From NCBI GenBank assembly GCA_965224255.1, contig CBDCYO010000005.1, positions 963,223 through 1,027,222 of the forward strand: a stretch of DNA of 64,000 nt, written 5' to 3'. This DNA comes from Dehalococcoidia bacterium (GTDB taxonomy: Bacteria; Chloroflexota; Dehalococcoidia; UBA6926). This document shows, piece after piece, positions 9,110 through 62,689 of the stretch; the stretch's first letter is position 1; each line of letters begins with the position of its first letter. The position numbers and the translations under genes are program-made. The notes under the pieces were generated by a model. The model had not been told where the DNA came from and did no database searches. It worked only from the letters and a program-made list of their open reading frames with translations.

Positions 9110-10084
9110 CTATCCCAACTCCTCCGAAAATGGCGCCATTGCACGCGCCAGATCACTCCGAGCATGAGCGCGCACCAACCCCTCACCCTCCGGCGGATCG
9201 TCCTCATCATCCGATGTATCACGCGCTGGCGGGCCGCCCAGGCCACGGTCAACAAGGTCGTGCGCGTTGCGGACGTACCCTCGGAATTCGGAGCCACCGG
9301 ACGGCGGGAAAGACGGACGCCCCCGCTGGGAGGGATGCTGATACACCTCGCCGATGATGACCTGCACGCCATCGATGGCATGATCGCGCAGGAACGCCGC
9401 CTCGTATCGATTACCCGCGTCCATGAGTGACAGAATCCGTTGAGCAAGCTGAGGATGGACGCGGCCCACCACGTCCCCACGGCAGGAATGCAAAGGCAAC
9501 CTGCTGCCCTCACGGGTCAGTGTCAACAGATCACCACTGCTCAAGCGGCCGACCGCGTCGGGGTCCGGTACGTCAATGAGCGTTGCGATGGTGCGTTTGC
9601 CCGCATCATTCATCAGCAGATGGCCGGAATGGACGTTGCGGTTCAGCGTCTCCGGGCTAACGTGGAGAGTGTTCGGCGTCGGTGCGGTGCCCGTTGCCCC
9701 GGCCTTCCGCGCAGATCTGATTCCTGCCGGTGCGGGCCCGGATGGCACGGCGCCGTTTGCCCTGCGTGTCCCGGACGCAGCCAACTTCCGTGTGCCTTCC
9801 ACTCGCTCAAGCCGATCGCGATTGCGGCGAGCAATCGTGTTTGACGGATCAATCCGAAGAGCGCTCTCGACAGCCTCGCGCGCCTCGTGAAGCTCTTCCA
9901 TCTCAAGCAGCGCCTTGGCGAGTCGATTCAGCGCCTCGATGTTCGAGGGCGCGAGCCGGAGAAGCGCCCTGTTGACCTCAACAGCCAGCCGCCAATCCTG
10001 GCTCAGCGCATAGGCAATGGCTGTTTCTGTCAGTTCCCTGGTTTTGCGGACGCGGGTGCGCTCATCTATTTCTACTGCTGTCAT
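9110..10084 (-). CDS. TPR-repeat protein with an uncharacterised C-terminal domain
   Basis: TPR-like helical repeats (AIAYALSQDWRLAVEVNRALLRLAPSNIEALNRLAKALLEMEELHEAREAVESALRIDPSN), then a ~170-aa domain with no recognisable motifs. Start assigned to MTAVEID (ATG 10084-10082). Confidence 0.5.
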   Translation of the reverse strand: MTAVEIDERTRVRKTRELTETAIAYALSQDWRLAVEVNRALLRLAPSNIEALNRLAKALLEMEELHEAREAVESALRIDPSNTIARRNRDRLERVEGTRKLAASGTRRANGAVPSGPAPAGIRSARKAGATGTAPTPNTLHVSPETLNRNVHSGHLLMNDAGKRTIATLIDVPDPDAVGRLSSGDLLTLTREGSRLPLHSCRGDVVGRVHPQLAQRILSLMDAGNRYEAAFLRDHAIDGVQVIIGEVYQHPSQRGRPSFPPSGGSEFRGYVRNAHDLVDRGLGGPPARDTSDDEDDPPEGEGLVRAHARSDLARAMAPFSEELG

Positions 10085-10351
10085 AGCGGATGCCCTGCCT
10101 CCCATGACCCGAATAACACCTCTTGGCGCAGGGAACACAGAGACGGGACGCAATGAACGCGACAACCTGGCAGGGTCTCCCGTAGGACACCAATTCGACG
10201 CCGCGACACGGGCTGCCACAGCATCAGCCGCCGCCTCATCGTTCCTGCCGCCTCCCCGCGCTAGTGGACGGCAGTTTTCGAACTCAGTCCAAAATCTATT
10301 GTCCGCTATGTGTCAACCCCACAGCGAGCATGGGGGAACGCCCGGTGAGCC

Positions 10352-13300
10352 TCAGACGCGCGCCCCGGCCGGCAGGGACGACAGCTCTGCCAGCGAGGCA
10401 ACGATGTCGGTGGTACGAAGGCTGACCGTCGTCACTCGGTGCAGCAGGTCGATGACGTGTTCCTTATGATCCGCAAAGCGATAGCTGTTGAAGTGCTCCC
10501 GAATCGTTGGGTCGCGAGGCGGCTTTTCTTTGTACTGATCGATGATCCACTCGAGGGCGCTGCGGTTACCCAGGCGATACTCCCAGGCCCCGGACGGCAC
10601 ATCGTGCAACGTCGTCTGCTCATCCAAGCGGATGATGCCCCGCCCCGTGTCCGCCCTCAGCATGGCCTTGGGCGTGGCACCCTCGCCACGACCCGCCAGA
10701 ACCGTGTCGACGCGCCTCAGGGGATACGGGTCCGCCGACTCAAACCCAATGTGCACGTCAAGGAGCTCCTGACCCAGGCGCGCCCACTCATGGAAATCGT
10801 CATGGAACGGGAGCCTGGGAAACCCGCGCGTCAGGTCGATGGCGTATTTCTCACGCCAGACGGGGTCATGCAGGGCGGCATAGGTGTACGCGAATATCTG
10901 CTCCGGCGTGATGGACTCGTCATCATAGCGGTCACGGAACTGGCGCAAACCCCATTCCGTGATGTTGCTCACGCGCGTCCCATCCTCCCGGTAGCGATAG
11001 AGGGGGAGGCATTGGGTATCACCAGTGAGATGGAGGTCTGGAAGCCGATTCGTGGCCAAAGCGCGAAACGGTACCGCCCCGGCGATGTTCAGGAAGCAAA
11101 TAACGCGGTTGTCACTTCGGAGGTCCTGGCCAAACATCTCGTAGTGGTTTGCTGTCAGCCTGTCGCTCATTTCGCGCACCGAGGAATAGTGCTTAGCGAC
11201 GAACGGTCTGTAGGAGGCCATTACAGGTGTGGACTCGGAATAATCAATCTTGCGGGATGCTTGAAGGTGGTTCCTAAGGCCCTCACTCCACTTTATTGCC
11301 AGATCGAGATTCCTGTCCCCATTGTCGACTGAAGTATTGAATCTGGCGGCAAAAAATGACGTCTTCGCCCCAAGCTGCCGCTCATCGAAGTCATATACCC
11401 ATTCGTCCCGTGCAGTGACGACGCCAGGGGAATACAGGCCGAACACCGCATTCTCATCTGCACGACTCTTGGCGAGCTTCGTCTCGCGGTTTGCTACGGG
11501 AATCAATGACTCGAAATCAGAATCCGATTGGTTCAGCCAGTTGGCTTTTGCGTCAGGAACAATCTCTGTGAACGGCGTAGCGGCGAGATTAAGCCCCTTT
11601 ACGAACCTGATCTTATCGGGAGCCTTTGTATAATCCGCGACTCTCCCATAGTGAATGCGAAACAGGGAACTCTCGCCCTTACGTACGAGAAAATAGATGG
11701 CGACTCCAACTCGGATCTTGTCTTCAAAGACATTCCCACCTTCACGCCTGCGTCTCTCACCTGAAGTCCGCGCGTTGCCGGTCATGTCGACAAGCCACAA
11801 TTCATTGAATTCTTGCGCCACGATTTTGCGGAAGCCATCGTCCTGGTGCGACTGTAGAAAGGCGCGGTTGGTGACAAACGCGATGATGCCGTCGTCTGCG
11901 AGCCGGTCTGACGCCCAGCGGATGAAGCGCTTGTACATGTCGTACTGTTTCGACTTCTGTGCGGTACTCTTCTTGACGTATGTCTCCTTGATGCGCTGAT
12001 CAATGGCCGGGTATTTCCTGTTTGGATTCAGATCATTCTCGTTCTGCTGGTTGGCGTTGTACGGCGGGTTGCCGATGATGACGCTGATCGTGCGTTCATT
12101 CTGGGTCTGCACGCGCATCCAGTTGTCGACTGAGAGTCCCCCCAGATTGAACCCCGACTGGCGAGTGACGGCTTCGCCCCCCGCGCCACTCTGTTGCCAG
12201 TCCATGTTGTCCAGTGTGTCGACGAAGGCGAGTCCGGGAAATCTGCTGTACGATCCGGTGCGCTCCTTGTAGGTGTATTCGATGTTGAGATTGGCGATGT
12301 AGTAGGGAAGAATGGCCATCTCATTGGCGTGGATCTCATTGTGGTACTTGTAGTCCAGTCGGTCATGGGGCAGGTGGTTGATGAGGCTGGTGATGAACGT
12401 GCCCGTCCCCGTGGCCGGATCAAGGATCTCGACGTTGTCATCCGCCAGCGAGCGGCCAAAGTGCGTCTTCAGCAGGTAATCCGTTCCTTGAATCATGAAG
12501 TCGACAATTTCGTTGGGCGTGTAGACGATGCCGAGCCTGTCGGCGTCTTTCGGGTTGTACGCCTTGTAAAAATCCTCGTAGATCACCTTGAGGAAGGTCT
12601 GCTTTTCCTGAAAGTCGGAGATGGTGTCGGCGGCACGAGCGATTGCCCCGTAGTAGGCCCGCAGGCGGTCAATGCTGTTGCGCCGAACAGCGCCAGTGAA
12701 GAATGTGCCCTCAAGGTCGTTCAACTGGCTGGCGATTGTGTTCTCGCGGTGAAACTGATCCTCGGCAAAGACGCGCAGGAAGATGTCCTTGGTGAGGATA
12801 TGCTGCAACAGCATCTCGCGAACGTCGCCCTCGGAGACATCGCCACCAATGGTCCCGCGGCAATGCTGGAGGAACGCTGCGGCCTTGCCGCGGTAGGTCG
12901 CGTTAGCGGCCTCTGCCTCGTCGATCGTCTCACGGAGGCCGCTCAACACAGTGGGCAGATCAGTGCTGAATTGCCGTTGCGCCCTGCGAAACTCTTCGAT
13001 CTCAGGAAGTTCATAGTCGAGAAATCTCGTTATGAGGCGATGGAGATCGGGCGCCTCCGCCATGTTGGTGCGCATGGCCTCAGCGCCGTTCTGAAAGAGC
13101 ACGGCAACGCGGCTGTCCTCAAAGATGATGTTGCTTCTCGGGTAGCCGCGATTGAGCTTGTTCTGGATCTCCCTGTCAAGGTCGTCCCTGGTATCCTTAG
13201 CCTCCCAGTACCCGCGAGCAAGGCGCAGGCTGTCCTTCACCGTGCCGTCGGGACGGTTCCTGTTCCCCGACTCCAACTCGGGCACGAGGGCAAGGCGTTC

Positions 13301-14218: not shown

Positions 14219-15451
14219 CTAGAGGGGAATATCGTCCGGCGATTCCAGTCTGAACGCACGGTGAAGGGCACGGACGGCATCCTCCACACGCTCCTGATGC
14301 ACCACGCACGTCAGGCTGATTTCAGCTGTTGTGATCATCTCGATGTTGACGTCGGCGTCACGGAGCGCGCGGAACATTGCACCCGCGTAGCCTGGCGCAT
14401 TGTTTAGCCCCGCGCCAATGATGCTGACCTTTGCCAAATGATCGTCGACTGTCACATCTGCCGCACCAATATCCTCACGAATCACCCGCATCTGGTCCAG
14501 AGTGGCCGGCAGATCTGCCAGCATCACGGTGAAGGAGAGGTCACTGAGACCATGTTGACCGGCGTTTTGCACGATGATGTCGACACTGATACCTGCATCG
14601 GCGAGTGGGGAAAAGACATTGGCCGCGATGCCAGGCCGATCCGGCACGCCCAGCACGGTAACCCGTGCGATACCGGCATCATGCGCAATCCCCCGCACCT
14701 TGTTGCGATTCTCCATCAATTCTCCTCCGTGAATGCGTGTGCCGCCAGACTCATCGGCGAGACGCGAGGCCACCAGGATGGGCACATCGTAGACCCAGCC
14801 GAGTTCGACGGCACGGTTGTGCATGACGCGTGCGCCCGCACTCGCCATCTCCAACATCTCGTTGTACGCGATGTCTGTGAGGCGGCGGGCTTCCGGGACG
14901 ATGCGCGGATCCGCGGAGTAGATGCCGTCAACGTCCGTGTAGATCTCACAGATAGGCGCACGCAGTTCGACGGCAAGCGCCACGGCCGTCGTATCGGACC
15001 CGCCCCGCCCGAGTGTCGTGATCTCCATGTCATCAGTCGTGCCCTGAAAGCCGGCGACAACGACAATGTTGCCCCGGTCGATCTCCTCGCGCAGCCGCTT
15101 TGGTTCAATCTGCGTGATACGGGCACGGGAATAGTCCGTGTCGGTCCGGATGCCCGCCTGAAAGCCGCTGAGGCTGACCGCGCCGAGGCCAAGATCGCGC
15201 AGTGCCATCGCCAACAGCGCACCGGAGACCACCTCACCCGTCGAGAGCAGCAGATCCATCTCCCGCGGCGCGGGGTTGTGTGAGACGCGACGACCCAGTT
15301 CGATGAGCTGATTCGTCGTCTGCCCCATCGCCGAGACGACGATGACAAGGTCATCTCCGGCGTGGCGCTCACCTGCCACGCGCTTGGCGATACGGAGGAT
15401 ATGATCGGCGGACGCAACGGAAGTCCCACCGTATTTCTGTACCCTGAGCAT
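14219..15451 (-). CDS. lysC: Aspartate kinase
   Basis: MLRVQKYGGTSVA N-terminus, amino-acid kinase fold and two C-terminal ACT-like segments. Start chosen at MLRVQKYGG (ATG 15451-15449), 10 nt after the thrB stop. Confidence 0.85.
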   Translation of the reverse strand: MLRVQKYGGTSVASADHILRIAKRVAGERHAGDDLVIVVSAMGQTTNQLIELGRRVSHNPAPREMDLLLSTGEVVSGALLAMALRDLGLGAVSLSGFQAGIRTDTDYSRARITQIEPKRLREEIDRGNIVVVAGFQGTTDDMEITTLGRGGSDTTAVALAVELRAPICEIYTDVDGIYSADPRIVPEARRLTDIAYNEMLEMASAGARVMHNRAVELGWVYDVPILVASRLADESGGTRIHGGELMENRNKVRGIAHDAGIARVTVLGVPDRPGIAANVFSPLADAGISVDIIVQNAGQHGLSDLSFTVMLADLPATLDQMRVIREDIGAADVTVDDHLAKVSIIGAGLNNAPGYAGAMFRALRDADVNIEMITTAEISLTCVVHQERVEDAVRALHRAFRLESPDDIPL

Positions 15452-18358: not shown

Positions 18359-19603
18359 GTGCGGATAGGGGCGGCATTCTGTGAGCAATCACGTATGAAT
18401 GGTAGCAGTGATGCGCAAAGCGCGACGCAGGCCGTGAAGGACGCCGCCACACGGGCTGGGTTCGACGTCGTTGGCATTGCGTCCGCAGATGTCTTTCGTG
18501 AGCGCGGAGAGACCGCGAAGGAGCGCGTATCCGAAGGTTTGATGGACGGCCTGCCCTGGTTCACTGAAGAGCGCGTCGAACGCGGCATGGACCCGGAAAC
18601 CCTGATGCCCAATGCCCGTTCGATCATTTCCCTGGCCTTGAGCCATCACTACGAAGGTTCCGCCGATCCCTCGGACACCCTGCCACGAGGCCGCATCGCA
18701 CGCTATGCCTGGGGAGAGGATTACCATCGCGTATTCGCCCGCCAGGTGCGCTCTTTCATCGCACAGTTGCCCGATGTGACGGGCGAAAAGGACATCGGGA
18801 CGAAGTGGTACACAGATACGGGGCCACTGCTTGACCGTGCCGTCGCGGAACGTGCGGGCGTCGGCTGGTTCGGGAAGAACACCAATATCCTCACCGCGCA
18901 GGGCTCATGGATGCTGTTGGCGCAGATCATCACGACGCTTGACCTCATTCCGGATGAGCCTCTGAAGAAAACGTGCGGCGCGTGTGCCATTTGCATTGAC
19001 GCGTGTCCAACAGCCGCAATCGTTGCGCCCTATGTGGTGGACAACCGCAAGTGCATCTCGTATCTGACAATTGAAAATCGCGGCAGTATTCCACGTGATG
19101 TCCGTGCCCTGATTGGTGACTGGATTTTCGGCTGTGATGTGTGCCAAGACGTGTGCCCCGTAAACCGTAAGGCGCGCGTTGGCGCAGCCTACGCGGATCT
19201 GACGCGGGATGCCGAAAACCGTGCCCGCCCGGAGTTGGTGGAGCTGCTGTCTCTTGATGACGCCGGATTTCGAGAACGCTTCAAGCAGAGTTCGGTCCTT
19301 CGAGCCAAACCTGAAGGAATGCGTCGCAATGTCTGTGTCGCGCTTGGCAACATCGCCGACACCACGACAGTCGTTCCCCTCACCCATGTCATGCGTACGG
19401 ATTCCTCACCCATCGTACGTGGCCACGCCGCGTGGGCCCTTGGACGCATCGCTGACACCGCAGCCGTGACGGCGCTTGAGAACGCGTTTGCAGAAGAGAC
19501 GGATGCCGGAGTTCTGGGAGAGATCAGAGAGGCCCTGCGTGAGGCGAGAGCCCGGCATACTGACTCCCAACAGGACGGCGAGAAACGCTACCTCCCCGTG
19601 TAA
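18359..19603 (+). CDS. queG: tRNA epoxyqueuosine(34) reductase QueG with C-terminal HEAT-repeat extension
   Basis: Two 4Fe-4S ferredoxin motifs (CGACAICIDACP; CDVCQDVCP), CISYLTIE motif, and C-terminal HEAT-like repeats (HAAWALGRIAD). Confidence 0.85.
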   Translation: MRIGAAFCEQSRMNGSSDAQSATQAVKDAATRAGFDVVGIASADVFRERGETAKERVSEGLMDGLPWFTEERVERGMDPETLMPNARSIISLALSHHYEGSADPSDTLPRGRIARYAWGEDYHRVFARQVRSFIAQLPDVTGEKDIGTKWYTDTGPLLDRAVAERAGVGWFGKNTNILTAQGSWMLLAQIITTLDLIPDEPLKKTCGACAICIDACPTAAIVAPYVVDNRKCISYLTIENRGSIPRDVRALIGDWIFGCDVCQDVCPVNRKARVGAAYADLTRDAENRARPELVELLSLDDAGFRERFKQSSVLRAKPEGMRRNVCVALGNIADTTTVVPLTHVMRTDSSPIVRGHAAWALGRIADTAAVTALENAFAEETDAGVLGEIREALREARARHTDSQQDGEKRYLPV

Positions 19604-21159
19604 AGCTCCCCGTCAGGCCGAAAGGATGCATAGCCGAACCAGTACGCGACGTGTCCGGAGACGCGCGTGTACACCGTGCCATTGGGGCCGCGCAGACCGT
19701 CCGCGGCACTCCGCCATTCGTGGCCGGCTCCATCGACAAGTCTTCCATCAGAGTCACGCATGAACGAGAGTTCGCCACGTTGGTAGGCCTGCACACCGCC
19801 GCCGTCATCGCTGACGAGGACTATGCTCGTCTCTCCGAGGGCGTCGTTCAGAACCGGAGTACCACGCAGCAGATCAAGTGGATAGGCCTTGCTTGCACCG
19901 GTCCCTGTCACCGCCACAAACACTTGCGATTTCGGCCCCAAACGGGCGTCTCTGCCACCGGGGCCGCCGGGAAACATGAGATGCGGGCTGGAGAAGTAGT
20001 CAGCGTAGGCCGCGCCGGGTGTGCCCGGCGTGGCGTAGTTTCGGTCATAGCCCGTTTCCAGCGAGAGCACCGTCGTATCCGGGTGTTGCCTACTCCATTC
20101 AGCCCACGTGGTCAGCGTGACAGGCAGGATCGGCAGGGTGACGTTTTCACCAACGTGCTCACCGACAACAGGCTGCCCGGTGAACTGATTCCAGAGATTG
20201 TATATGCCCATGTCATACATGAGCTTGTTTGATCGATAGAGCAGCCCTGACGAGCCGAATGTGTAGGGCTCCTGACCAGCTGGACGCCGAGTGTCATACA
20301 GAATGCCAGAGCCGCACAGGGTGCAGTATGCGAGTGTAAACGGCTGGTCACCAAGGACGTCATTCGCCATCTCATGCCAGTTCATAATCCGCAGCGGGTA
20401 GGCGCGCGCTTCACCGTCGAGGTAGACGCCAAAAACCTGCTCATCTGACTCGAGGTAGTGGGCCTCCTCCAACGGAATCGTCTTGGGTTTGTCGAGCGAG
20501 GGGATGGCGTCCACGTGGACGCCGCCCCAGACGATCTCCTCAAGCCGTATCGTATGCGTGACTCCGTCCTCCGGCAGAAACATGCGGAAACGGGGATCGA
20601 CGGTGCTCAGTACCTCTCCTTTCCACCAGGCGTAAGGAGCCGGCGCCGCGTATTCCGGATGTGCCTCCACCCATTCAACCCACTGGAACCAATCCGTTCC
20701 AATTGCCTCCACGCCCGTCAACTGACGAAGGGAATCACCGATGTGGCGCCGATAGAGCATTCCGTATGGTGGGATGCCCAGCATGTCCACGAGGAAGGGC
20801 GCGCTGTGCGGATCACGCGTCAGACGAATGGAATCGAGGCCTGGGGCGAGAAACGCGTCGATTGCCGAATCCGTCGTTTCGTCCGGCCGCTCGTACAGGA
20901 CGAGTGTTAGGACATCTCTGAGTTGAACGGGCGTGAGCGGACGCGCCTCCTGTGTACCGATGGCTGAAGTTTGCGTCGGAGACGGTGTCGACGTGGTGGT
21001 TGGCTTAGGCGACCTCACGGGGAAGGGCGCGTCGCCAGTGGCTCCTGGTTGCTGGGTCGCGTCCGGTATGCCCGTGGCGGTGTCATCGCCACGGGCGGTG
21101 ACCAGAAGCCCAACCATAGGGAGCAGAAGCGCAATGGACACACTGATGAATCGTCTCAT
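19588..21159 (-). CDS. Secreted DUF3179-family protein
   Basis: N-terminal signal peptide (MRRFISVSIALLLPMVGLLV); Pro/Thr-rich linker; conserved region with AYCTLCGSG typical of DUF3179. Confidence 0.65.
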   Translation of the reverse strand: MRRFISVSIALLLPMVGLLVTARGDDTATGIPDATQQPGATGDAPFPVRSPKPTTTSTPSPTQTSAIGTQEARPLTPVQLRDVLTLVLYERPDETTDSAIDAFLAPGLDSIRLTRDPHSAPFLVDMLGIPPYGMLYRRHIGDSLRQLTGVEAIGTDWFQWVEWVEAHPEYAAPAPYAWWKGEVLSTVDPRFRMFLPEDGVTHTIRLEEIVWGGVHVDAIPSLDKPKTIPLEEAHYLESDEQVFGVYLDGEARAYPLRIMNWHEMANDVLGDQPFTLAYCTLCGSGILYDTRRPAGQEPYTFGSSGLLYRSNKLMYDMGIYNLWNQFTGQPVVGEHVGENVTLPILPVTLTTWAEWSRQHPDTTVLSLETGYDRNYATPGTPGAAYADYFSSPHLMFPGGPGGRDARLGPKSQVFVAVTGTGASKAYPLDLLRGTPVLNDALGETSIVLVSDDGGGVQAYQRGELSFMRDSDGRLVDGAGHEWRSAADGLRGPNGTVYTRVSGHVAYWFGYASFRPDGELYTGR

Positions 21160-52992: not shown

Positions 52993-54987
52993 ATGATCGG
53001 TATCGACACCGGCGGCACATTCACTGACCTCATACGCCTCGAACCGGATGGCTCAGTCCGGATGATCAAGACGCCATCCACTCCCGTCGATCCGGCCCAG
53101 TCCTTTCTCCAGGCCCTGGCTGATCTCTCCAGCATCGCTCCGGACGAGGATATTGTGCATGGCTGCACTGTCGGCACGAATGCGGTACTGGAGCATCGCG
53201 GCGCGCGGACCGCGCTTGTCACGACACGTGGCATGGCGGACGTGATCGAGATCGGCAGACAGTCCCGCAACGATCTCTATAGCCTCACCGTCAGTCGCCC
53301 CATCCCACTCGTTCCGCGCGAGTTGCGCTTTGAAGTGGATGAGCGGGTGACGGCAGATGGGAGAGTAGTGCGGGCGCCAGACGATGCTGACCTGGACGCG
53401 CTCGCAGAGAAAATCATGGCGGCGGCCGTGGATTCCATCGCCATCGTCCTTCTCTTTTCTTTCCTGCGCCCCGAACATGAGCGGCGCGTGAGAGATGCGT
53501 TGCAGCGGCAGCTTCCCGCTGATATCCCCATCTCGATCTCATACGACATCGTGCCGGAGTTTCGAGAGTTCGAGCGGACGACGACGACCGTCCTCAACAC
53601 GTATGTCTCGCCCATCATGCGCACGTACCTGTCCCGCATCGACGCGTCTGCGCCCAGCGCACTACGCATCATGTCATCGGTTGGCGGGAGTATGACAATC
53701 GGCCAGGCGCGTGCGTTCCCCGTTCAGACGCTATTGAGCGGACCGGCGGGAGGCGTTGTCGGCGCGTTCACGGTGGCGCACAGAGCGGGATTTGATCGGA
53801 TCATCACACTCGATATGGGCGGAACGTCCACGGATGTTTCGTTGTGTGATGGCGGCATTCAGCGCACGTCTGAGGGAAGCATCGGCGGCTATCCAATTCG
53901 TGTACCGATCATAGATATTCACACCATTGGCGCGGGCGGTGGTTCGCTCGCGGCAGTGGATGCGGGCGGCGCGCTGACAGTCGGGCCACAATCCGCCGGC
54001 GCAGACCCCGGGCCGGCGGCATACGGGCGCGGCGGCGGACCCACGGTGACGGACGCGAACATCGTACTTGGCAGACTACCTGCGGATAGGCCCCTTGCCG
54101 GTCAACTGCGTTTGGACGGTGAGGCAGCAACGACGGCTTTGGCACGCATCGGAGCAGAACTGCGCCTACCTATCGGTCAGGCAGCGCTGGGACTCGTACG
54201 TGTCACCAACGCGAACATGGAGCAGGCGCTGCGTGTCGTATCTCTGGAACGCGGCCATGACCCACGGGATTTCTCACTCGTTGCCTTCGGTGGAGCAGGG
54301 CCGCTTCACGCGTGCGAACTCGCGGACGGGCTCGGAATTCGACGCATCCTCATCCCCCCACTCCCCGGTGCCCTCTCAGCATGGGGCATGGTGAACGTCG
54401 ACATCACGCGTGACTATTCACGCACAGTCATGCTGAAGATGGAATCCGTGCCGCCAGACGAGCGGTCTCGCGTGCTGAGTGAACTGGAGGCTGACGCACG
54501 GCAGGATTTGCGCGACGCGGGCCTGCGCGTGGACAGTGCCACGTTCACGGCCTCGGCAGATCTCCGCTATCGCGGGCAGGGCTACGAGTTGTCCATTCCT
54601 CTGGAGGCTGAGGACGGACTTACACTGCAAGAGCGGTTCCACGCCGAGCATCAGCGTCGGTTTGACTTCAGCCATCCTGGTTGGCCGACTGAGCTTGTTA
54701 CATTGCGCCTTCACGCCACCATCCCTGTCCCTCACCCACAGGGTGCCACAGAGTCACAGGACGGTGACCCAGATGCGGGTCACGCATTGGTTGGGGAAAC
54801 AACGCTCGTGACAGACAGTGGGAGCATCCCGGCGCGCCTCTACGATCGGGAGGCGTTGTTGGCAGGTAATCACGTCGTCGGACCTGCCATCCTGGCGCAA
54901 ACAGACTCGACGACATATCTGCCACCGGGATGGGCCGCCCGCGTTGATTCCCACCTCAACCTCATTTTGGAGCGTGAGTCGGAATGA
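52993..54987 (+). CDS. hyuA: Hydantoinase A / N-methylhydantoinase A (HyuA family, ATP-hydrolysing)
   Basis: MIGIDTGGTFTDL N-terminal ATPase motif and DMGGTSTDV motif of the hydantoinase/oxoprolinase A family. Confidence 0.85.
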   Translation: MIGIDTGGTFTDLIRLEPDGSVRMIKTPSTPVDPAQSFLQALADLSSIAPDEDIVHGCTVGTNAVLEHRGARTALVTTRGMADVIEIGRQSRNDLYSLTVSRPIPLVPRELRFEVDERVTADGRVVRAPDDADLDALAEKIMAAAVDSIAIVLLFSFLRPEHERRVRDALQRQLPADIPISISYDIVPEFREFERTTTTVLNTYVSPIMRTYLSRIDASAPSALRIMSSVGGSMTIGQARAFPVQTLLSGPAGGVVGAFTVAHRAGFDRIITLDMGGTSTDVSLCDGGIQRTSEGSIGGYPIRVPIIDIHTIGAGGGSLAAVDAGGALTVGPQSAGADPGPAAYGRGGGPTVTDANIVLGRLPADRPLAGQLRLDGEAATTALARIGAELRLPIGQAALGLVRVTNANMEQALRVVSLERGHDPRDFSLVAFGGAGPLHACELADGLGIRRILIPPLPGALSAWGMVNVDITRDYSRTVMLKMESVPPDERSRVLSELEADARQDLRDAGLRVDSATFTASADLRYRGQGYELSIPLEAEDGLTLQERFHAEHQRRFDFSHPGWPTELVTLRLHATIPVPHPQGATESQDGDPDAGHALVGETTLVTDSGSIPARLYDREALLAGNHVVGPAILAQTDSTTYLPPGWAARVDSHLNLILERESE

Positions 54988-56624
54988 GCGTGGACGCAAT
55001 ATCCCTGGAGGTCTTTCGCCGTCTCTTCGCGTCGATTGCGGAAGAGATGGGGGCTGTGTTAGGACGCACGGCGTGGTCACCCAACATCAAGGAGCGGCGC
55101 GATTTCTCCTGCGCTGTGTTCACTACTGCCGGTCACATCCTGGCGCAAGCTGAGCATATCCCCGTGCACCTGGGAGCGATGCCCGCCTCTGTTCAGGCCG
55201 CGATCACACAGTTCGATTCCTTCGCACCGGGCGATCTCATCGCCCTCAATGATCCTTACCTTGGTGGCACACACCTGCCAGACCTGACCCTGATTTCACC
55301 CGTGTTTGTTCCCATTCATGACCAGCATGGCGAATCGGATGACCTTGCCGGATTTGTGGCGACGCGGGCGCACCATGCGGACATCGGCGGCATTGCCCCC
55401 GGCTCAATGCCCACCTCAACCTCCCTATACCAAGAGGGGTTCATCATTCCTCCAATCAGGCTTGCACGAGCGGGTGTGCTCAATGAGGAGGTCATAGATG
55501 TCTTCATGCGTAACGTCCGTACGCCTGAGGAACGACGCGGCGATCTTGCCGCGCAGATCGCAGCCAATCGCATCGGGGAGGGGCGATATCACCACCTCAT
55601 CACGCGCTATGGGTGGGAGGTTGTGCAGGAACATGGGAGTGCGCTCATCGCCTATGCTGAGCGGTTCGTGCGGAGTGCCTTGCGGGAGATTCCCGCCGGG
55701 CACTACACATTCGAAGATGATATGGAGCCTCTGACGCCAGGGGCAGAGCGCCCGCGTATCGTAGTCACGGTGACGAGCGATGGTGCGGGCACGCTGACCG
55801 TTGATTTCACCGGCACCTCACCGGAGCAGCCGCTGAGCAACATCAACGCCGTTCGGGCTGTGACGGTCTCTGCCGTGCACTACTGCGTCCGATGCCTGGC
55901 GGGGGAGCGCGCGCCAGCGAACCACGGCGCGTTTGCATCGGTTGAGGTCATCACGCCTGAGGGCTCACTGGTGAATCCGCGCCCGCCCAGCGCAGTTGCG
56001 GCCGGTAACGTCGAAACGTCCCAACGCATCGTGGATGCGGTCTTTGGTGCACTCGCTCCGGCTCTGCCGGACAGAATCCCCGCCGCGAGCCAGGGGACGA
56101 TGAACAACATCACCATCGGCGGAGTGGATCCGCGCACGAATGAGCCCTTCGCCTACTACGAAACGCTGGCAGGGGGCGTCGGCGCCAGCCCCGATGGTCA
56201 CGGCGAATCCGCCATTCACAGCCATATGACCAACACACTGAACACGCCCATTGAGGCTCTTGAATTTCAATACCCGTTCCGCGTGCTGGAATACAGCGTT
56301 CGGCGCAACTCCGGCGGGGCCGGCCATTTCCACGGCGGCGACGGCCTCATCCGCACCGTGGAGTTCCTGGGCGACGCAACGGTATCGCTTCTGACGCAGC
56401 GGCGTTCCCGCGGTGCATGGGGACTTTTCGGCGGCCGGGACGGCGCACCGGGCAAGAACATTCTGCGTCGACGAAATGGGCATATCGAGGAAACCCTGCC
56501 ACCAAACATCACCGTTGACGTGCACCATGGCGACAGACTTACCATTGAGACCCCCGGCGGCGGCGGTTGGGGCACTCCAGAAACACACGCGGGCGAGACG
56601 AGCAAAGAGGAGACGAAGCCCTGA
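54984..56624 (+). CDS. hyuB: Hydantoinase B / N-methylhydantoinase B (HyuB family)
   Basis: Start overlaps the hyuA stop (ATGA). LEVFRRLFASIAEEMG N-terminus and downstream HyuB-typical regions. Confidence 0.85.
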   Translation: MSVDAISLEVFRRLFASIAEEMGAVLGRTAWSPNIKERRDFSCAVFTTAGHILAQAEHIPVHLGAMPASVQAAITQFDSFAPGDLIALNDPYLGGTHLPDLTLISPVFVPIHDQHGESDDLAGFVATRAHHADIGGIAPGSMPTSTSLYQEGFIIPPIRLARAGVLNEEVIDVFMRNVRTPEERRGDLAAQIAANRIGEGRYHHLITRYGWEVVQEHGSALIAYAERFVRSALREIPAGHYTFEDDMEPLTPGAERPRIVVTVTSDGAGTLTVDFTGTSPEQPLSNINAVRAVTVSAVHYCVRCLAGERAPANHGAFASVEVITPEGSLVNPRPPSAVAAGNVETSQRIVDAVFGALAPALPDRIPAASQGTMNNITIGGVDPRTNEPFAYYETLAGGVGASPDGHGESAIHSHMTNTLNTPIEALEFQYPFRVLEYSVRRNSGGAGHFHGGDGLIRTVEFLGDATVSLLTQRRSRGAWGLFGGRDGAPGKNILRRRNGHIEETLPPNITVDVHHGDRLTIETPGGGGWGTPETHAGETSKEETKP

Positions 56625-56632
56625 CCATCCGG

Positions 56633-57205
56633 ATGCGGTTGATCCCCGGCTTGCTGATGACAGCGTTGCTGCTTGGAATGCTGCTGCTCGCGGTTGGGTG
56701 CAGCTCAACCGCGCCGGATGAATCGCCCGCTCAGAAGCCGGCAACCGCGCCCGCGGATACGTCACCACCACTCGGTAATCGCGTTGGTGAGCGCGCCCTT
56801 GATTTTACCGTTACGACAACGTCCGGTGAGATGCGCTCCCTCACTGATTTCATGGCGGCCAATCAGCCCGTTATCGTCTATTTCTTTGCAACCTGGTGAC
56901 CATCGTGTCGGTCCGAGTTGCGGACCCTCAAGAGTGTTTACCCCGACTACCAGGATGATATCGGCTTCATTGCGGTTGACGTCGATCCGTCTGAGGACGC
57001 TGAGCATATCGCGACGTACGCCGCACAACAGGCCTATCCATGGGAGATGGCCACGTATGACGGCGGCATTCTCGTTGACTACGCAATCACGAGTCAGGCA
57101 TCCAAAATCGTGATTGATGCCGATGGAATTATCACGCTGCGCGGAACGTACGGGACACTATCCGAACGTGCATGGCGGGACGCGCTAGACGCAGTGACGG
57201 CATGA
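56633..57205 (+). CDS. TlpA/ResA-like thiol:disulfide oxidoreductase lipoprotein with in-frame TGA (56897-56899) at the first Cys of the CxxC motif; candidate selenoprotein (UxxC), or a pseudogene
   Basis: Lipoprotein signal MRLIPGLLMTALLLGMLLLAVGCSS. Both flanks of the TGA are in the same frame and give QPVIVYFFATW-[TGA]-PSCRSELRTLKSVYPDYQDDIGFIAVDVD, the canonical thioredoxin-fold WCxxC context. Hairpin GGTCCG-AGTTG-CGGACC begins 11 nt after the TGA. Confidence 0.55.
56910..56926 (+). promoter_or_regulatory. Candidate bacterial SECIS-like stem-loop (GGUCCG AGUUG CGGACC) 11 nt downstream of the in-frame UGA
   Basis: 6-bp perfect stem with 5-nt loop containing GU, positioned at the distance expected for bacterial SECIS elements. 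Confidence 0.4.
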
Positions 57206-59907: not shown

Positions 59908-59994
59908 TGGTGCCGGGGGAGGGACTCGAACCCACACTCCTTTTTGGGGAAGCGGATTTTAAGTCCGCCGCGTCTGCCATTCCGCCACCCCGGC
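59908..59994 (-). tRNA. tRNA-Leu (anticodon UAA), type II with long variable arm, CCA encoded
   Basis: Minus-strand sequence GCCGGGGTGGCGGAATGGCAGACGCGGCGGACTTAAAATCCGCTTCCCCAAAAAGGAGTGTGGGTTCGAGTCCCTCCCCCGGCACCA. 7-bp acceptor stem, anticodon stem GCGGA/TCCGC with loop CTTAAAA, GGTTCGAGTCC T-loop region. Confidence 0.8.
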
Positions 59995-60340: not shown

Positions 60341-62689
60341 TTACTCCTCGTCTTTGTACGCTTTTTGTTCGGCAGCCCTCGCACGCAGTACCGCCCCTGC
60401 CATTTCTTGTCCAGAGCCCCGCCCGCCACGCGGGCTATGCGTCGATGTCCGGTAGACGGTGATCACTCCAGGGAGGTCCTCAAGCCGTGACATCATCCGA
60501 CTTACCTCTGAAAGACCACTTGCCTCAACCGTGAGCGTTATCGTAACCGTGCGATCCGCATTGTGTCTATCACGCACGCCTGTAATGTTGATGTGATCGG
60601 CGGACACCAAGGTCGTGATATCGCGCAAGAGCCCGACGCGATCCTGTGACGAGATGACGACACTCGCCGGGTATTTCTGTTCGAAGTCCGGCCAGGTTAC
60701 CTGCATCAGGCGCTCTGGTTCATCTTCATTCACGACGTTGTTGCAGTCACGCCGATGAACGGTGACCCCACGGTTGCGGGTAATGAATCCGATGATTTCT
60801 TCGCCCGGCATGGGCCGGCAGCATGGCGCAGAGCGCGCTGGTGTCGCCCCGAGGCCGTGCACGTTGACGGAAAGTTCACCGCTTGATGGCCGCACATGAA
60901 TCGTCTCCGCCTTTTCATTAGGAGGCGCAAGCCGCGCTGCGATCTGGTTAACACCAACCTGTCCGGTGCCAAGAGACAGGATGAAATCATCCGCCGTTTG
61001 ATAGCCAAACAGTGTCGCAAGATGGCGCGGGTCAAGGTGCACGCCCAGGCGCCGCGCCTCTCGCTCAAGTAATTGACGCCCACGTGCGACGCTCTCAGAC
61101 CGTTCCTGCACACGGAACCAGTAGCGAACTTTGGAGCGCGCCAACTCCGTGCGTACATATCCCCGGTCAGGATTCAGCCAATCCAGGCTCGGCCCCTTTT
61201 GATTCTTGGATTGGATGATCTCAACGGTGTCGCCGTTATGAAGGGTGTAGCTGAGGGACACCATCCGCCCATTCACCTTTGCTCCCACCGCTCCGTATCC
61301 GATGTCCGTGTGGATTCGGAAAGCGAAATCCAGCGGCGTTGAGCCTGCTGGCAGCTCACGTATCTCACCCCGCGGCGTGTACACATACACCTGGTCAACA
61401 AGAATCTCACGCTTGAGCTGATCCACAAACTCCTGTGCGCCGACGACGTCTCGCTGCCAATCAAGTAATTGCCGGAGCCACGTGATGCGCTCATCGAACT
61501 GGCTATCAACTGCACCTTCCTTGTAGCGCCAGTGTGCTGCGATGCCGTACTCCGCCGTCTGATGCATGCCCACCGTCCGTATCTGGACCTCCAGCGGGTT
61601 GCCATCCGGCGTCATCACCGTCGTGTGGAGTGATTGATAGCCCGTCTCACGCGGGTTGGCGATGTAATCATCAAACTGGCCGGGAAGTGGCCGCCAGAGT
61701 CCGTGAACGACTCCCAGCACTGCGTAGCAGGCGTGCACATCTCGCGCCACGATGCGAACAGCTTGCAGGTCGTTGATATCCTCGAATTCCCGTCCCATCT
61801 CGCGGTACCGATCCATCTTCTGCGCGATGCTGTAGATGCTCTTTGTCCTTCCGGTAATCTCGACGTCCTTCAAATCCTGCGCCGCAAGTGTCTCTCGCAG
61901 AACGCGCAGCGCCTCTTCCACACCCGTCTCACGCTCCGTCAAGCGTGTGGCCGCTTGCGCGGCCACACGCTGATGCCGGGCGGGCTCCAAGTGGAGAAAC
62001 GCTAGGTCATTCAGTTCAGACTCGATACTGTCAATACCCAACCGATGCGCTAGGGGCGCGTAGATGTCTCGCGTTTCCACCGATATTCGATATCGCTGGT
62101 CGGACGACAGCGCGTCCAATGTCCGCATGTTATGTAAACGATCCGCTAACTTGATGAGGACGACGCGCACATCCTGCGCCATTGCCAGCAGCATCTTGCG
62201 CAGGCTCTCCGCCTGAAACCCACTCGCCTGTTCGGGCTGCGCTGCCGCTCCGTTCGCGTCCTGTCGCGTTTGTCCGGACAGGCGTGACAGTTTCGTCACG
62301 CCGTCCACCAGCCCCGCTACCTCCGCTCCAAATTGCTCGCGTATTTCATCGAGCGTGATGGGCGAATCTTCAACGACGTCATGCAATAGCGCCGCTTGCA
62401 GCGTCGGCGCATCAAGCATCTCGACGTCTGTCAAAATGAGTGCCGTCCCGAGCGGATGGCAGATGAACGGCTCGCCGGATTTTCGGAACTGTCCATCATG
62501 GGCACGCTCCGCCGTCCCATACGCCTGGCGTATGGCAGCAATACGCTCCGGCGTGAGTCTCTGCGCTAAAAGTCGCGCCTCAAGCTCAGGATAGCCCAGG
62601 CGACTAGGATCAGCTGATGTAGATCTGGCCGTGTTGCTCACAGCATTCACAGCAGCGCCATCGTCAGTAGCCGACCGTCTGGTGTCCAT
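60341..62689 (-). CDS. relA: Bifunctional (p)ppGpp synthetase/hydrolase RelA/SpoT (Rel)
   Basis: HD hydrolase domain (HPLGTALIL ... HDVVED), RelA/SpoT synthetase domain, TGS and C-terminal ACT domains; 782 aa. Confidence 0.9.
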   Translation of the reverse strand: MDTRRSATDDGAAVNAVSNTARSTSADPSRLGYPELEARLLAQRLTPERIAAIRQAYGTAERAHDGQFRKSGEPFICHPLGTALILTDVEMLDAPTLQAALLHDVVEDSPITLDEIREQFGAEVAGLVDGVTKLSRLSGQTRQDANGAAAQPEQASGFQAESLRKMLLAMAQDVRVVLIKLADRLHNMRTLDALSSDQRYRISVETRDIYAPLAHRLGIDSIESELNDLAFLHLEPARHQRVAAQAATRLTERETGVEEALRVLRETLAAQDLKDVEITGRTKSIYSIAQKMDRYREMGREFEDINDLQAVRIVARDVHACYAVLGVVHGLWRPLPGQFDDYIANPRETGYQSLHTTVMTPDGNPLEVQIRTVGMHQTAEYGIAAHWRYKEGAVDSQFDERITWLRQLLDWQRDVVGAQEFVDQLKREILVDQVYVYTPRGEIRELPAGSTPLDFAFRIHTDIGYGAVGAKVNGRMVSLSYTLHNGDTVEIIQSKNQKGPSLDWLNPDRGYVRTELARSKVRYWFRVQERSESVARGRQLLEREARRLGVHLDPRHLATLFGYQTADDFILSLGTGQVGVNQIAARLAPPNEKAETIHVRPSSGELSVNVHGLGATPARSAPCCRPMPGEEIIGFITRNRGVTVHRRDCNNVVNEDEPERLMQVTWPDFEQKYPASVVISSQDRVGLLRDITTLVSADHINITGVRDRHNADRTVTITLTVEASGLSEVSRMMSRLEDLPGVITVYRTSTHSPRGGRGSGQEMAGAVLRARAAEQKAYKDEE

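Follow-up and report, generated by a model that had tools for sequence, protein, structure and literature searches.

The gene at 56633-57205 on the forward strand of the Dehalococcoidia DNA analysed here (a single stretch of 64 kb, referred to as the window) very probably encodes a genuine selenocysteine (Sec)-containing redoxin, in which the catalytic cysteine of a TlpA-like thiol-disulfide oxidoreductase is replaced by Sec at a recoded TGA. The identification was first proposed from the letters of the window alone (the sequence-only reading), and it is now supported by conservation of the TGA among relatives, a covarying hairpin directly downstream of it, and purifying selection on both sides of the codon. 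The features on which the argument turns are as follows.

52993..56624, + strand: hyuA (52993-54987) and hyuB (54984-56624), hydantoinase/oxoprolinase A and B, assigned by Pfam
56633..57205, + strand: complete candidate selenoprotein gene, 190 codons including one putative Sec-UGA; terminal TGA at 57203-57205
56633..56701, + strand: predicted signal peptide with lipobox L-A-V-G-C, by inspection of the sequence; Cys23 at 56699-56701
56897..56899, + strand: in-frame TGA, read as Sec89, at the nucleophilic first position of the U-P-S-C motif
56897..56908, + strand: U-P-S-C redox motif (U89-P-S-C92), TGA CCA TCG TGT, aligned with the WCxxC of ResA/DsbE/TlpA relatives
56910..56926, + strand: bacterial SECIS-type hairpin; GGTCCG (56910-56915), loop AGTTG (56916-56920), CGGACC (56921-56926)
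56915..56917, + strand: Glu95 codon GAG, at the ResA-type Glu position three residues past the second redox Cys

The Gene and Its Product

Starting from the ATG at 56633, a single reading frame reaches the terminal TGA, with the TGA at 56897-56899 as its sole internal one. Read through that codon, the frame gives a product of 190 residues, in which the TGA falls between VIVYFFATW and PSCRSELRTLK. The N-terminus, MRLIPGLLMTALLLGMLLLAVGC, is hydrophobic and by inspection closes with the lipobox; orthologues carry the same kind of lipobox (LAVAC or AAAC at its end), and from signal peptide and lipobox an exported, lipid-anchored protein is predicted. Frame, lipobox and the Pfam assignment given below thus bear out the earlier statement that read-through of a single TGA yields a complete lipoprotein redoxin. 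Of the six frames, the redoxin frame alone has a positive codon score, before as well as after the TGA; the other five score negative. Comparison of the window gene with five relatives, at saturated dS, gives a dN/dS of 0.11-0.19 upstream and downstream of the TGA alike; because the ratio is equally low on both sides, translation appears to run through the codon.

Pfam confirms that the gene follows hyuAB, as had been claimed. The end of hyuB and the redoxin start are 8 nt apart, which makes co-transcription with hyuAB likely; no promoter-like site was found between the two genes, and a scan for promoters and terminators gave nothing above shuffles. A functional link to hyuAB was weighed and set aside, since the genes are adjacent only in a close clade with general synteny and not in a distant Sec clade; their adjacency is read as simple lineage synteny. 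Within that distant clade, locus L027 instead has a gene for a c-type cytochrome (Cytochrom_C/CBB3; 9384-9980, - strand) in divergent orientation beside its Sec redoxin, a weak hint of a link to cytochrome maturation. Further along the window, the only tRNA is a tRNA-Leu(TAA) at 59908-59994 (- strand), which is also the sole Rfam match at gathering thresholds; it adjoins a RelA/SpoT-family gene at 60341-62689 (- strand; HD_4, RelA_SpoT, TGS, and ACT_4 domains).

Fold and Active Site

When Cys is substituted at the stop, the protein matches Pfam AhpC-TSA (PF00578) with E = 3.1e-15 and 56.7 bits, where the gathering cutoff is 26; there are further matches to Thioredoxin, Thioredoxin_8, and Redoxin. 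The nearest relatives in PDB and NCBIfam are ResA, DsbE/CcmG, StoA, and TlpA. No match was obtained at the equivalog level of NCBIfam, the scores against curated cutoffs being 50.8 vs 170 for ResA, 40.9 vs 123 for DsbE, and 24.6 vs 230 for TlpA. By these profile scores the window protein is a predicted member of the TlpA superfamily and an orthologue of no characterised enzyme (ResA, DsbE/CcmG, TlpA, StoA).

In alignments with the homologues P0001, P0003, and P0004 and with ResA, DsbE/CcmG, and other PDB relatives, the stop codon is matched by the first Cys of WCxxC, the position to which the sequence-only reading had assigned it. A structure was modelled for P0001, a Cys orthologue 53% identical to the window protein (AF2, pLDDT 88.1). 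The model superposes on Bacillus subtilis ResA (chains 1su9/1st9) with a target-normalised TM-score (TMt) of 0.89 and an rmsd of 1.3-1.5 Å over 136 residues, and it also matches exported TlpA-like redoxins that include the pneumococcal lipoproteins Etrx1/2 as well as SdbA (4hqz, 2yp6, 4hqs, 5um7). It thus shows the thioredoxin fold with ResA-type additions expected of TlpA/ResA/CcmG-like reductases (cd02966). The redox motif of the model lies at the N-terminus of helix 84-100 (helix 1); by established thioredoxin-fold chemistry, the first motif position at the N-terminus of helix 1 is the attacking position.

Two further positions bear on the chemistry. Glu95 is nearly invariant among TlpA-like homologues, and the first base of its codon closes the stem of the hairpin. 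The cis-Pro column holds Pro in at least 90% of TlpA-like homologues and Ala156 in the window protein (codon 57098-57100); among relatives, P0001 and the copy at locus L022 also have Ala, most close orthologues have Pro, and the distant Sec clade has Ser. With cis-Pro replaced by Ala156, the redox chemistry of the window protein may therefore differ from that of ResA/TlpA.

Conservation of the TGA among Relatives

The same TGA occupies the homologous codon in all 32 of the other TGA-carrying copies, whose products are 33-63% identical to the window protein. These copies comprise 27 loci from genome contigs (genome_contigs), the second domain of a fusion at locus L001, an ENA copy of the L001 contig, and three metagenome contigs; the genome scan took one genome per species, and its 27 loci, all with TGA, come from Dehalococcoidia, SAR202, and Chloroflexota MAGs. 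More distant matches (Nitrospinota, Rikenellaceae, Actinomycetota) are ordinary Cys redoxins.

The sole Cys orthologue found, P0001 (locus L002, 10001-10567, + strand), has TGC at this codon (WCTTC), is 53% identical to the window protein, and is an uninterrupted protein of 188 aa without a hairpin at the equivalent place. The codon in orthologues had been put forward as a check on the reading; TGA in 32 other copies and TGC in one is a Sec/Cys pairing, and the orthologues run on past the codon. In a neighbour-joining tree computed without bootstrap P0001 nests within the Sec clade, and its genome retains the gene for a second, unrelated candidate selenoprotein (Sec-DUF3179, see below); together with the loss of the hairpin, this suggests that the Cys form arose by secondary Sec-to-Cys replacement. 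On present sampling the clade in Dehalococcoidia is apparently nearly Sec-fixed.

The protein search also returned an odd 218-aa "protein" (P0002), which begins just past one active site and stops just ahead of another. Its contig (L001) carries hyuAB followed by a two-domain fusion with in-frame TGA at both first CxxC positions (FFASW-U-PSC and FFSST-U-PVC), which gene callers cut into fragments of 93, 218, and 97 aa; the earlier expectation that standard callers would fragment or miss such genes is thus exemplified by an orthologue. The fusion (9701-10969, + strand; the same as locus L013) is a tandem of two TlpA-like domains joined by a Pro/Thr-rich linker. Its putative Sec codons are at 9980 and 10655, and each has a hairpin of its own, GGTCTG-AGTTG-CAGACT and GCTCTG-ATTTG-CAGAGC, respectively.

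The SECIS-Type Hairpin

The hairpin GGTCCG-AGTTG-CGGACC, described earlier as lying eleven nt downstream of the TGA, is present at 56910-56926: 10 nt separate TGA and stem, which begins at the 11th nt, and 16 nt separate TGA and loop. The element is compact, with a stem of 6 bp, a loop of 5 nt (AGUUG), and a total length of 17 nt. Its MFE is -12.9 kcal/mol in the window (-10.3 to -13.6 kcal/mol overall). Taken alone, the window sequence folds only slightly better than chance predicts (z = -1.85, with 8 of 200 shuffles doing equally well), and it is the comparative data that give the hairpin its significance.

Those data come from 29 segments downstream of the TGA, 25 of them distinct, aligned without gaps. 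Across the 25 distinct sequences, pairing holds in all 150 cells of the helix (100%), with compensatory changes in three of the six pairs (GC/CG at 15-29, UA/GC at 16-28, and UA/CG at 18-26). No shuffle matches the observed covariation score, registers slid along the alignment pair at 33-55%, and RNAalifold recovers the same 6-bp helix. Columns 15 and 18 of the 5' arm fall on the third bases of codons (Arg CGG/CGC; Ser or Ala NCC/NCT, with Ser as TCC/TCT), and they switch synonymously as the partner codon in the 3' arm changes its amino acid (Thr to Ser/Arg; Arg to Gln). Since synonymous changes in one arm track amino acid changes in the other, constraint on the protein is by itself insufficient to account for the pairing. 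The aligned copies hardly vary in the loop AGUUG, whose G-U at positions 2-3 falls where the loop of the consensus bacterial SECIS model is conserved.

The published bSECIS model specifies a loop of 3-9 nt, a stem of 4-16 bp, a UGA-to-loop distance of 16-37 nt, and an MFE of at most -7.5 kcal/mol (PMC13188914; also PMC10778597), with G/U after a G that lies within the first two loop nucleotides (PMC13188914). The SECIS-like spacing noted earlier held up when this pattern check was run: the window hairpin satisfies every constraint, its 16-nt UGA-to-loop spacing being the lower limit. Rfam assigned no family to the hairpin, either at gathering thresholds over the whole window or at E up to 10 on 56800-57050, where the only matches were chance ones to snoRNAs. 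Like the bSECISearch consensus and the E. coli fdhF SECIS, the element is an in-ORF hairpin just 3' of the UGA with a small apical loop and G-U at positions 2-3; in contrast to them, the window clade conserves a stem of 6-7 bp only, without a conserved lower helix or bulged U.

A Second Selenoprotein Family and the Sec Machinery

A DUF3179 lipoprotein gene, unrelated to the redoxin gene and located 3-5 kb from it, has an in-frame TGA within W-U-P-L-C in 20 of 20 related loci (L001, L002-L012, and L014-L021, the locus with the Cys redoxin included). The example at L001 has the following coordinates.

L001 13875-15002, - strand: putative Sec-DUF3179 gene, TGA at 14669; split in two by gene callers

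Its hairpin has 7 bp, starts 20 nt past the UGA, and has a 5-nt loop (CGUGU) with G-U at positions 2-3; DUF3179 already figures among listed selenoprotein families (PMC13188914). The window's own DUF3179 paralogue (19588-21159, - strand; 523 aa) is a Cys form, Y-C-T-L-C, 31% identical to the Sec form. Other genes with in-frame TGA were sought in the 64-kb window with a motif scan, whose 75 matches were too noisy to use, and with a codon-score scan, whose three matches look like antisense frames; neither scan yielded a second Sec gene candidate in the window.

No tRNA-Sec was detected by ARAGORN in the 64-kb window or the 29 loci, and tblastn with E. coli SelA, SelB, and SelD (from NC_000913.3; E <= 1e-3) found no selA, selB, or selD, either in the window or within the ~20 kb surrounding each of the related loci; as these stretches are a small part of each genome, absence from them is uninformative. 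The ARAGORN run also reported, at locus L017 (6193-6283, + strand), a 91-nt tRNA-Ser with the anticodon AGA, which is unusual for bacteria.

The literature speaks to the lineage as a whole. BSepDB contains only species with a Sec pathway, and two Dehalococcoidia MAGs are among its ten most selenoprotein-rich bacteria, one of them from the UUID-named series to which loci found here belong (PMC13326102). SelA/SelB are enriched in sponge-symbiont bins (PMC5649159), Dehalogenimonas has selC together with genes for Sec synthesis and the Sec-specific elongation factor (PMC4918011), and an 8/4-type tRNA-Sec is reported for Chloroflexi (PMC5389517). These reports and the second selenoprotein gene indirectly make Sec decoding plausible for the Dehalococcoidia lineage.

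Alternative Readings of the TGA

Three other accounts of the TGA were weighed against Sec insertion, all of them very improbable. In the first, which retains a slightly larger share than the others, the UGA is decoded as a residue other than Sec, either through a lineage-wide reassignment (to Trp or Gly) or through near-cognate read-through (Trp, Cys, or Arg). Sec insertion is itself predicted here, and a UGA followed by C, as at the window TGA, is a leaky termination context. However, TGA terminates 20 of the 46 long ORFs in the window, among them hyuB and the redoxin gene itself, and is therefore not globally reassigned. Decoding of this kind also fits poorly with a TGA found only at the redox-active Cys position, where homologues have Cys, with the covarying hairpin of bSECIS type that comes next, and with a second family (DUF3179) in related genomes that repeats the UxxC pattern alongside a similar hairpin.

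The second account supposes two products, an 88-residue N-terminal lipopeptide ending at the TGA and an independently initiated C-terminal ORF at 56918-57205, with the hairpin acting as an attenuator or stability element. The ORF list does contain that 95-aa frame, with a TTG start, and automatic callers annotate such fragments; but neither half would be a complete thioredoxin fold, since the division would split the CxxC motif and helix 1. The frame is moreover kept across the TGA in every orthologue, and the Cys orthologue is one uninterrupted protein, so that a pair of separate products is scarcely credible.

The last account, a Cys codon turned TGA in a dead gene or by a wrong base in sequencing or assembly, draws on TGC/TGT being one substitution from TGA and on the one orthologue with TGC, and it is just as remote: purifying selection past the TGA as strong as before it rules out a pseudogene, the same TGA recurs in the 32 diverged copies from independent assemblies, and the window copy retains a perfect hairpin and loop that the Cys orthologue is without, a lineage-wide combination of TGA and hairpin that a one-off sequencing error would not reproduce.

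Proposed Mechanism and Function

Under the Sec reading, the UGA at 56897 would not be taken as a stop, and the 17-nt hairpin 10 nt downstream would serve as a bacterial SECIS that recruits SelB with Sec-tRNA(Sec) to the ribosome, leading to insertion of Sec. The predicted product is an exported, lipid-anchored thiol-disulfide oxidoreductase of ResA/TlpA/CcmG type with Sec in place of the attacking Cys; once exported and lipidated, the mature protein would be located on the outer face of the cytoplasmic membrane. There it may reduce disulfides of extracytoplasmic client proteins by way of a selenenylsulfide intermediate, and it could be recycled by a membrane electron carrier of CcdA/DsbD type. 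The most likely function is that of a lipid-anchored disulfide reductase that faces outward and uses a selenenylsulfide.

Relation to Known Systems

Thioredoxin-fold selenoproteins with UxxC have been known since the mid-2000s. The Prx-like thiol:disulfide oxidoreductase selenoproteins (PF00578, UxxC/UxxU; Zhang & Gladyshev) are an established family, and thiol:disulfide interchange proteins, a UGC-type TlpA family, and redoxin-family selenoproteins are catalogued as well (PMC1794560, PMC13188914). The window protein resembles the Prx-like family in its best Pfam match (PF00578), its thioredoxin fold, a UxxC that lines up with CxxC in Cys homologues, and a bSECIS immediately after it, and for both the function is predicted as redox only. 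The two differ in distribution and in neighbours: the Prx-like family was defined in Deltaproteobacteria and Clostridia, whereas the window clade consists of lipoproteins from Dehalococcoidia/SAR202-type Chloroflexota, and the structural and NCBIfam neighbours of the window protein are ResA/DsbE/TlpA instead of peroxiredoxins. The window gene thus fits the Prx-like family as a predicted member by domain and motif. The UGC-type TlpA-superfamily selenoprotein from metagenomes has the motif U-G-C, in contrast to the four-residue U-x-x-C of the window protein.

Among Cys enzymes, ResA (B. subtilis), CcmG/DsbE, and TlpA act outside the cytoplasm as thiol-disulfide reductases in the maturation of cytochrome c and CuA. 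The window protein has in common with them the fold, W-C/U-x-x-C at the N-terminus of helix 1, the Glu three residues past the second Cys, and export with membrane tethering (predicted here); it differs in having Sec for the attacking Cys, a lipobox anchor where they have a TM helix, and Ala at the cis-Pro position, and its gene follows hyuAB and has no res/ccm operon context. Etrx1/Etrx2 (Streptococcus pneumoniae) and SdbA, which are surface-exposed lipoprotein thioredoxins, match the P0001 model structurally and are TlpA-like redoxins anchored outside the cytoplasmic membrane, as is predicted for the window protein; unlike it, they rely on Cys, and their partners (MsrAB2, CcdA) are known.

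What is new here appears to be limited to a nearly Sec-fixed Dehalococcoidia clade, a minimal, well-covarying SECIS, and a two-Sec tandem fusion in one genome; current concepts are unchanged by it. A wider proposal would have Sec-TlpA and the neighbouring Sec-DUF3179 lipoproteins form a dedicated extracytoplasmic selenium redox relay in marine and sponge-associated Dehalococcoidia, diverged from ResA/TlpA and serving clients unrelated to cytochrome c/CuA maturation. It is prompted by the UxxC of both proteins, the G-U at positions 2-3 of both SECIS loops, and the distance of 3-5 kb between the genes in 20 genomes, and its suggestion of divergent chemistry by the loss of cis-Pro in part of the family and the single tandem two-Sec fusion; the relay is an unlikely proposal at present.

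Because standard gene callers split or drop the gene, a selenoprotein with Sec at its active site would be hidden in an abundant lineage of oceans and sponges, and the gene adds to the evidence for heavy selenium investment by marine Dehalococcoidia. Models of bacterial SECIS elements could be refined with this 17-nt hairpin, which is compact and covaries clearly, and the natural Sec/Cys pair (the window gene or its relative at L003 vs P0001) offers a way to study why an exported redoxin keeps Sec.
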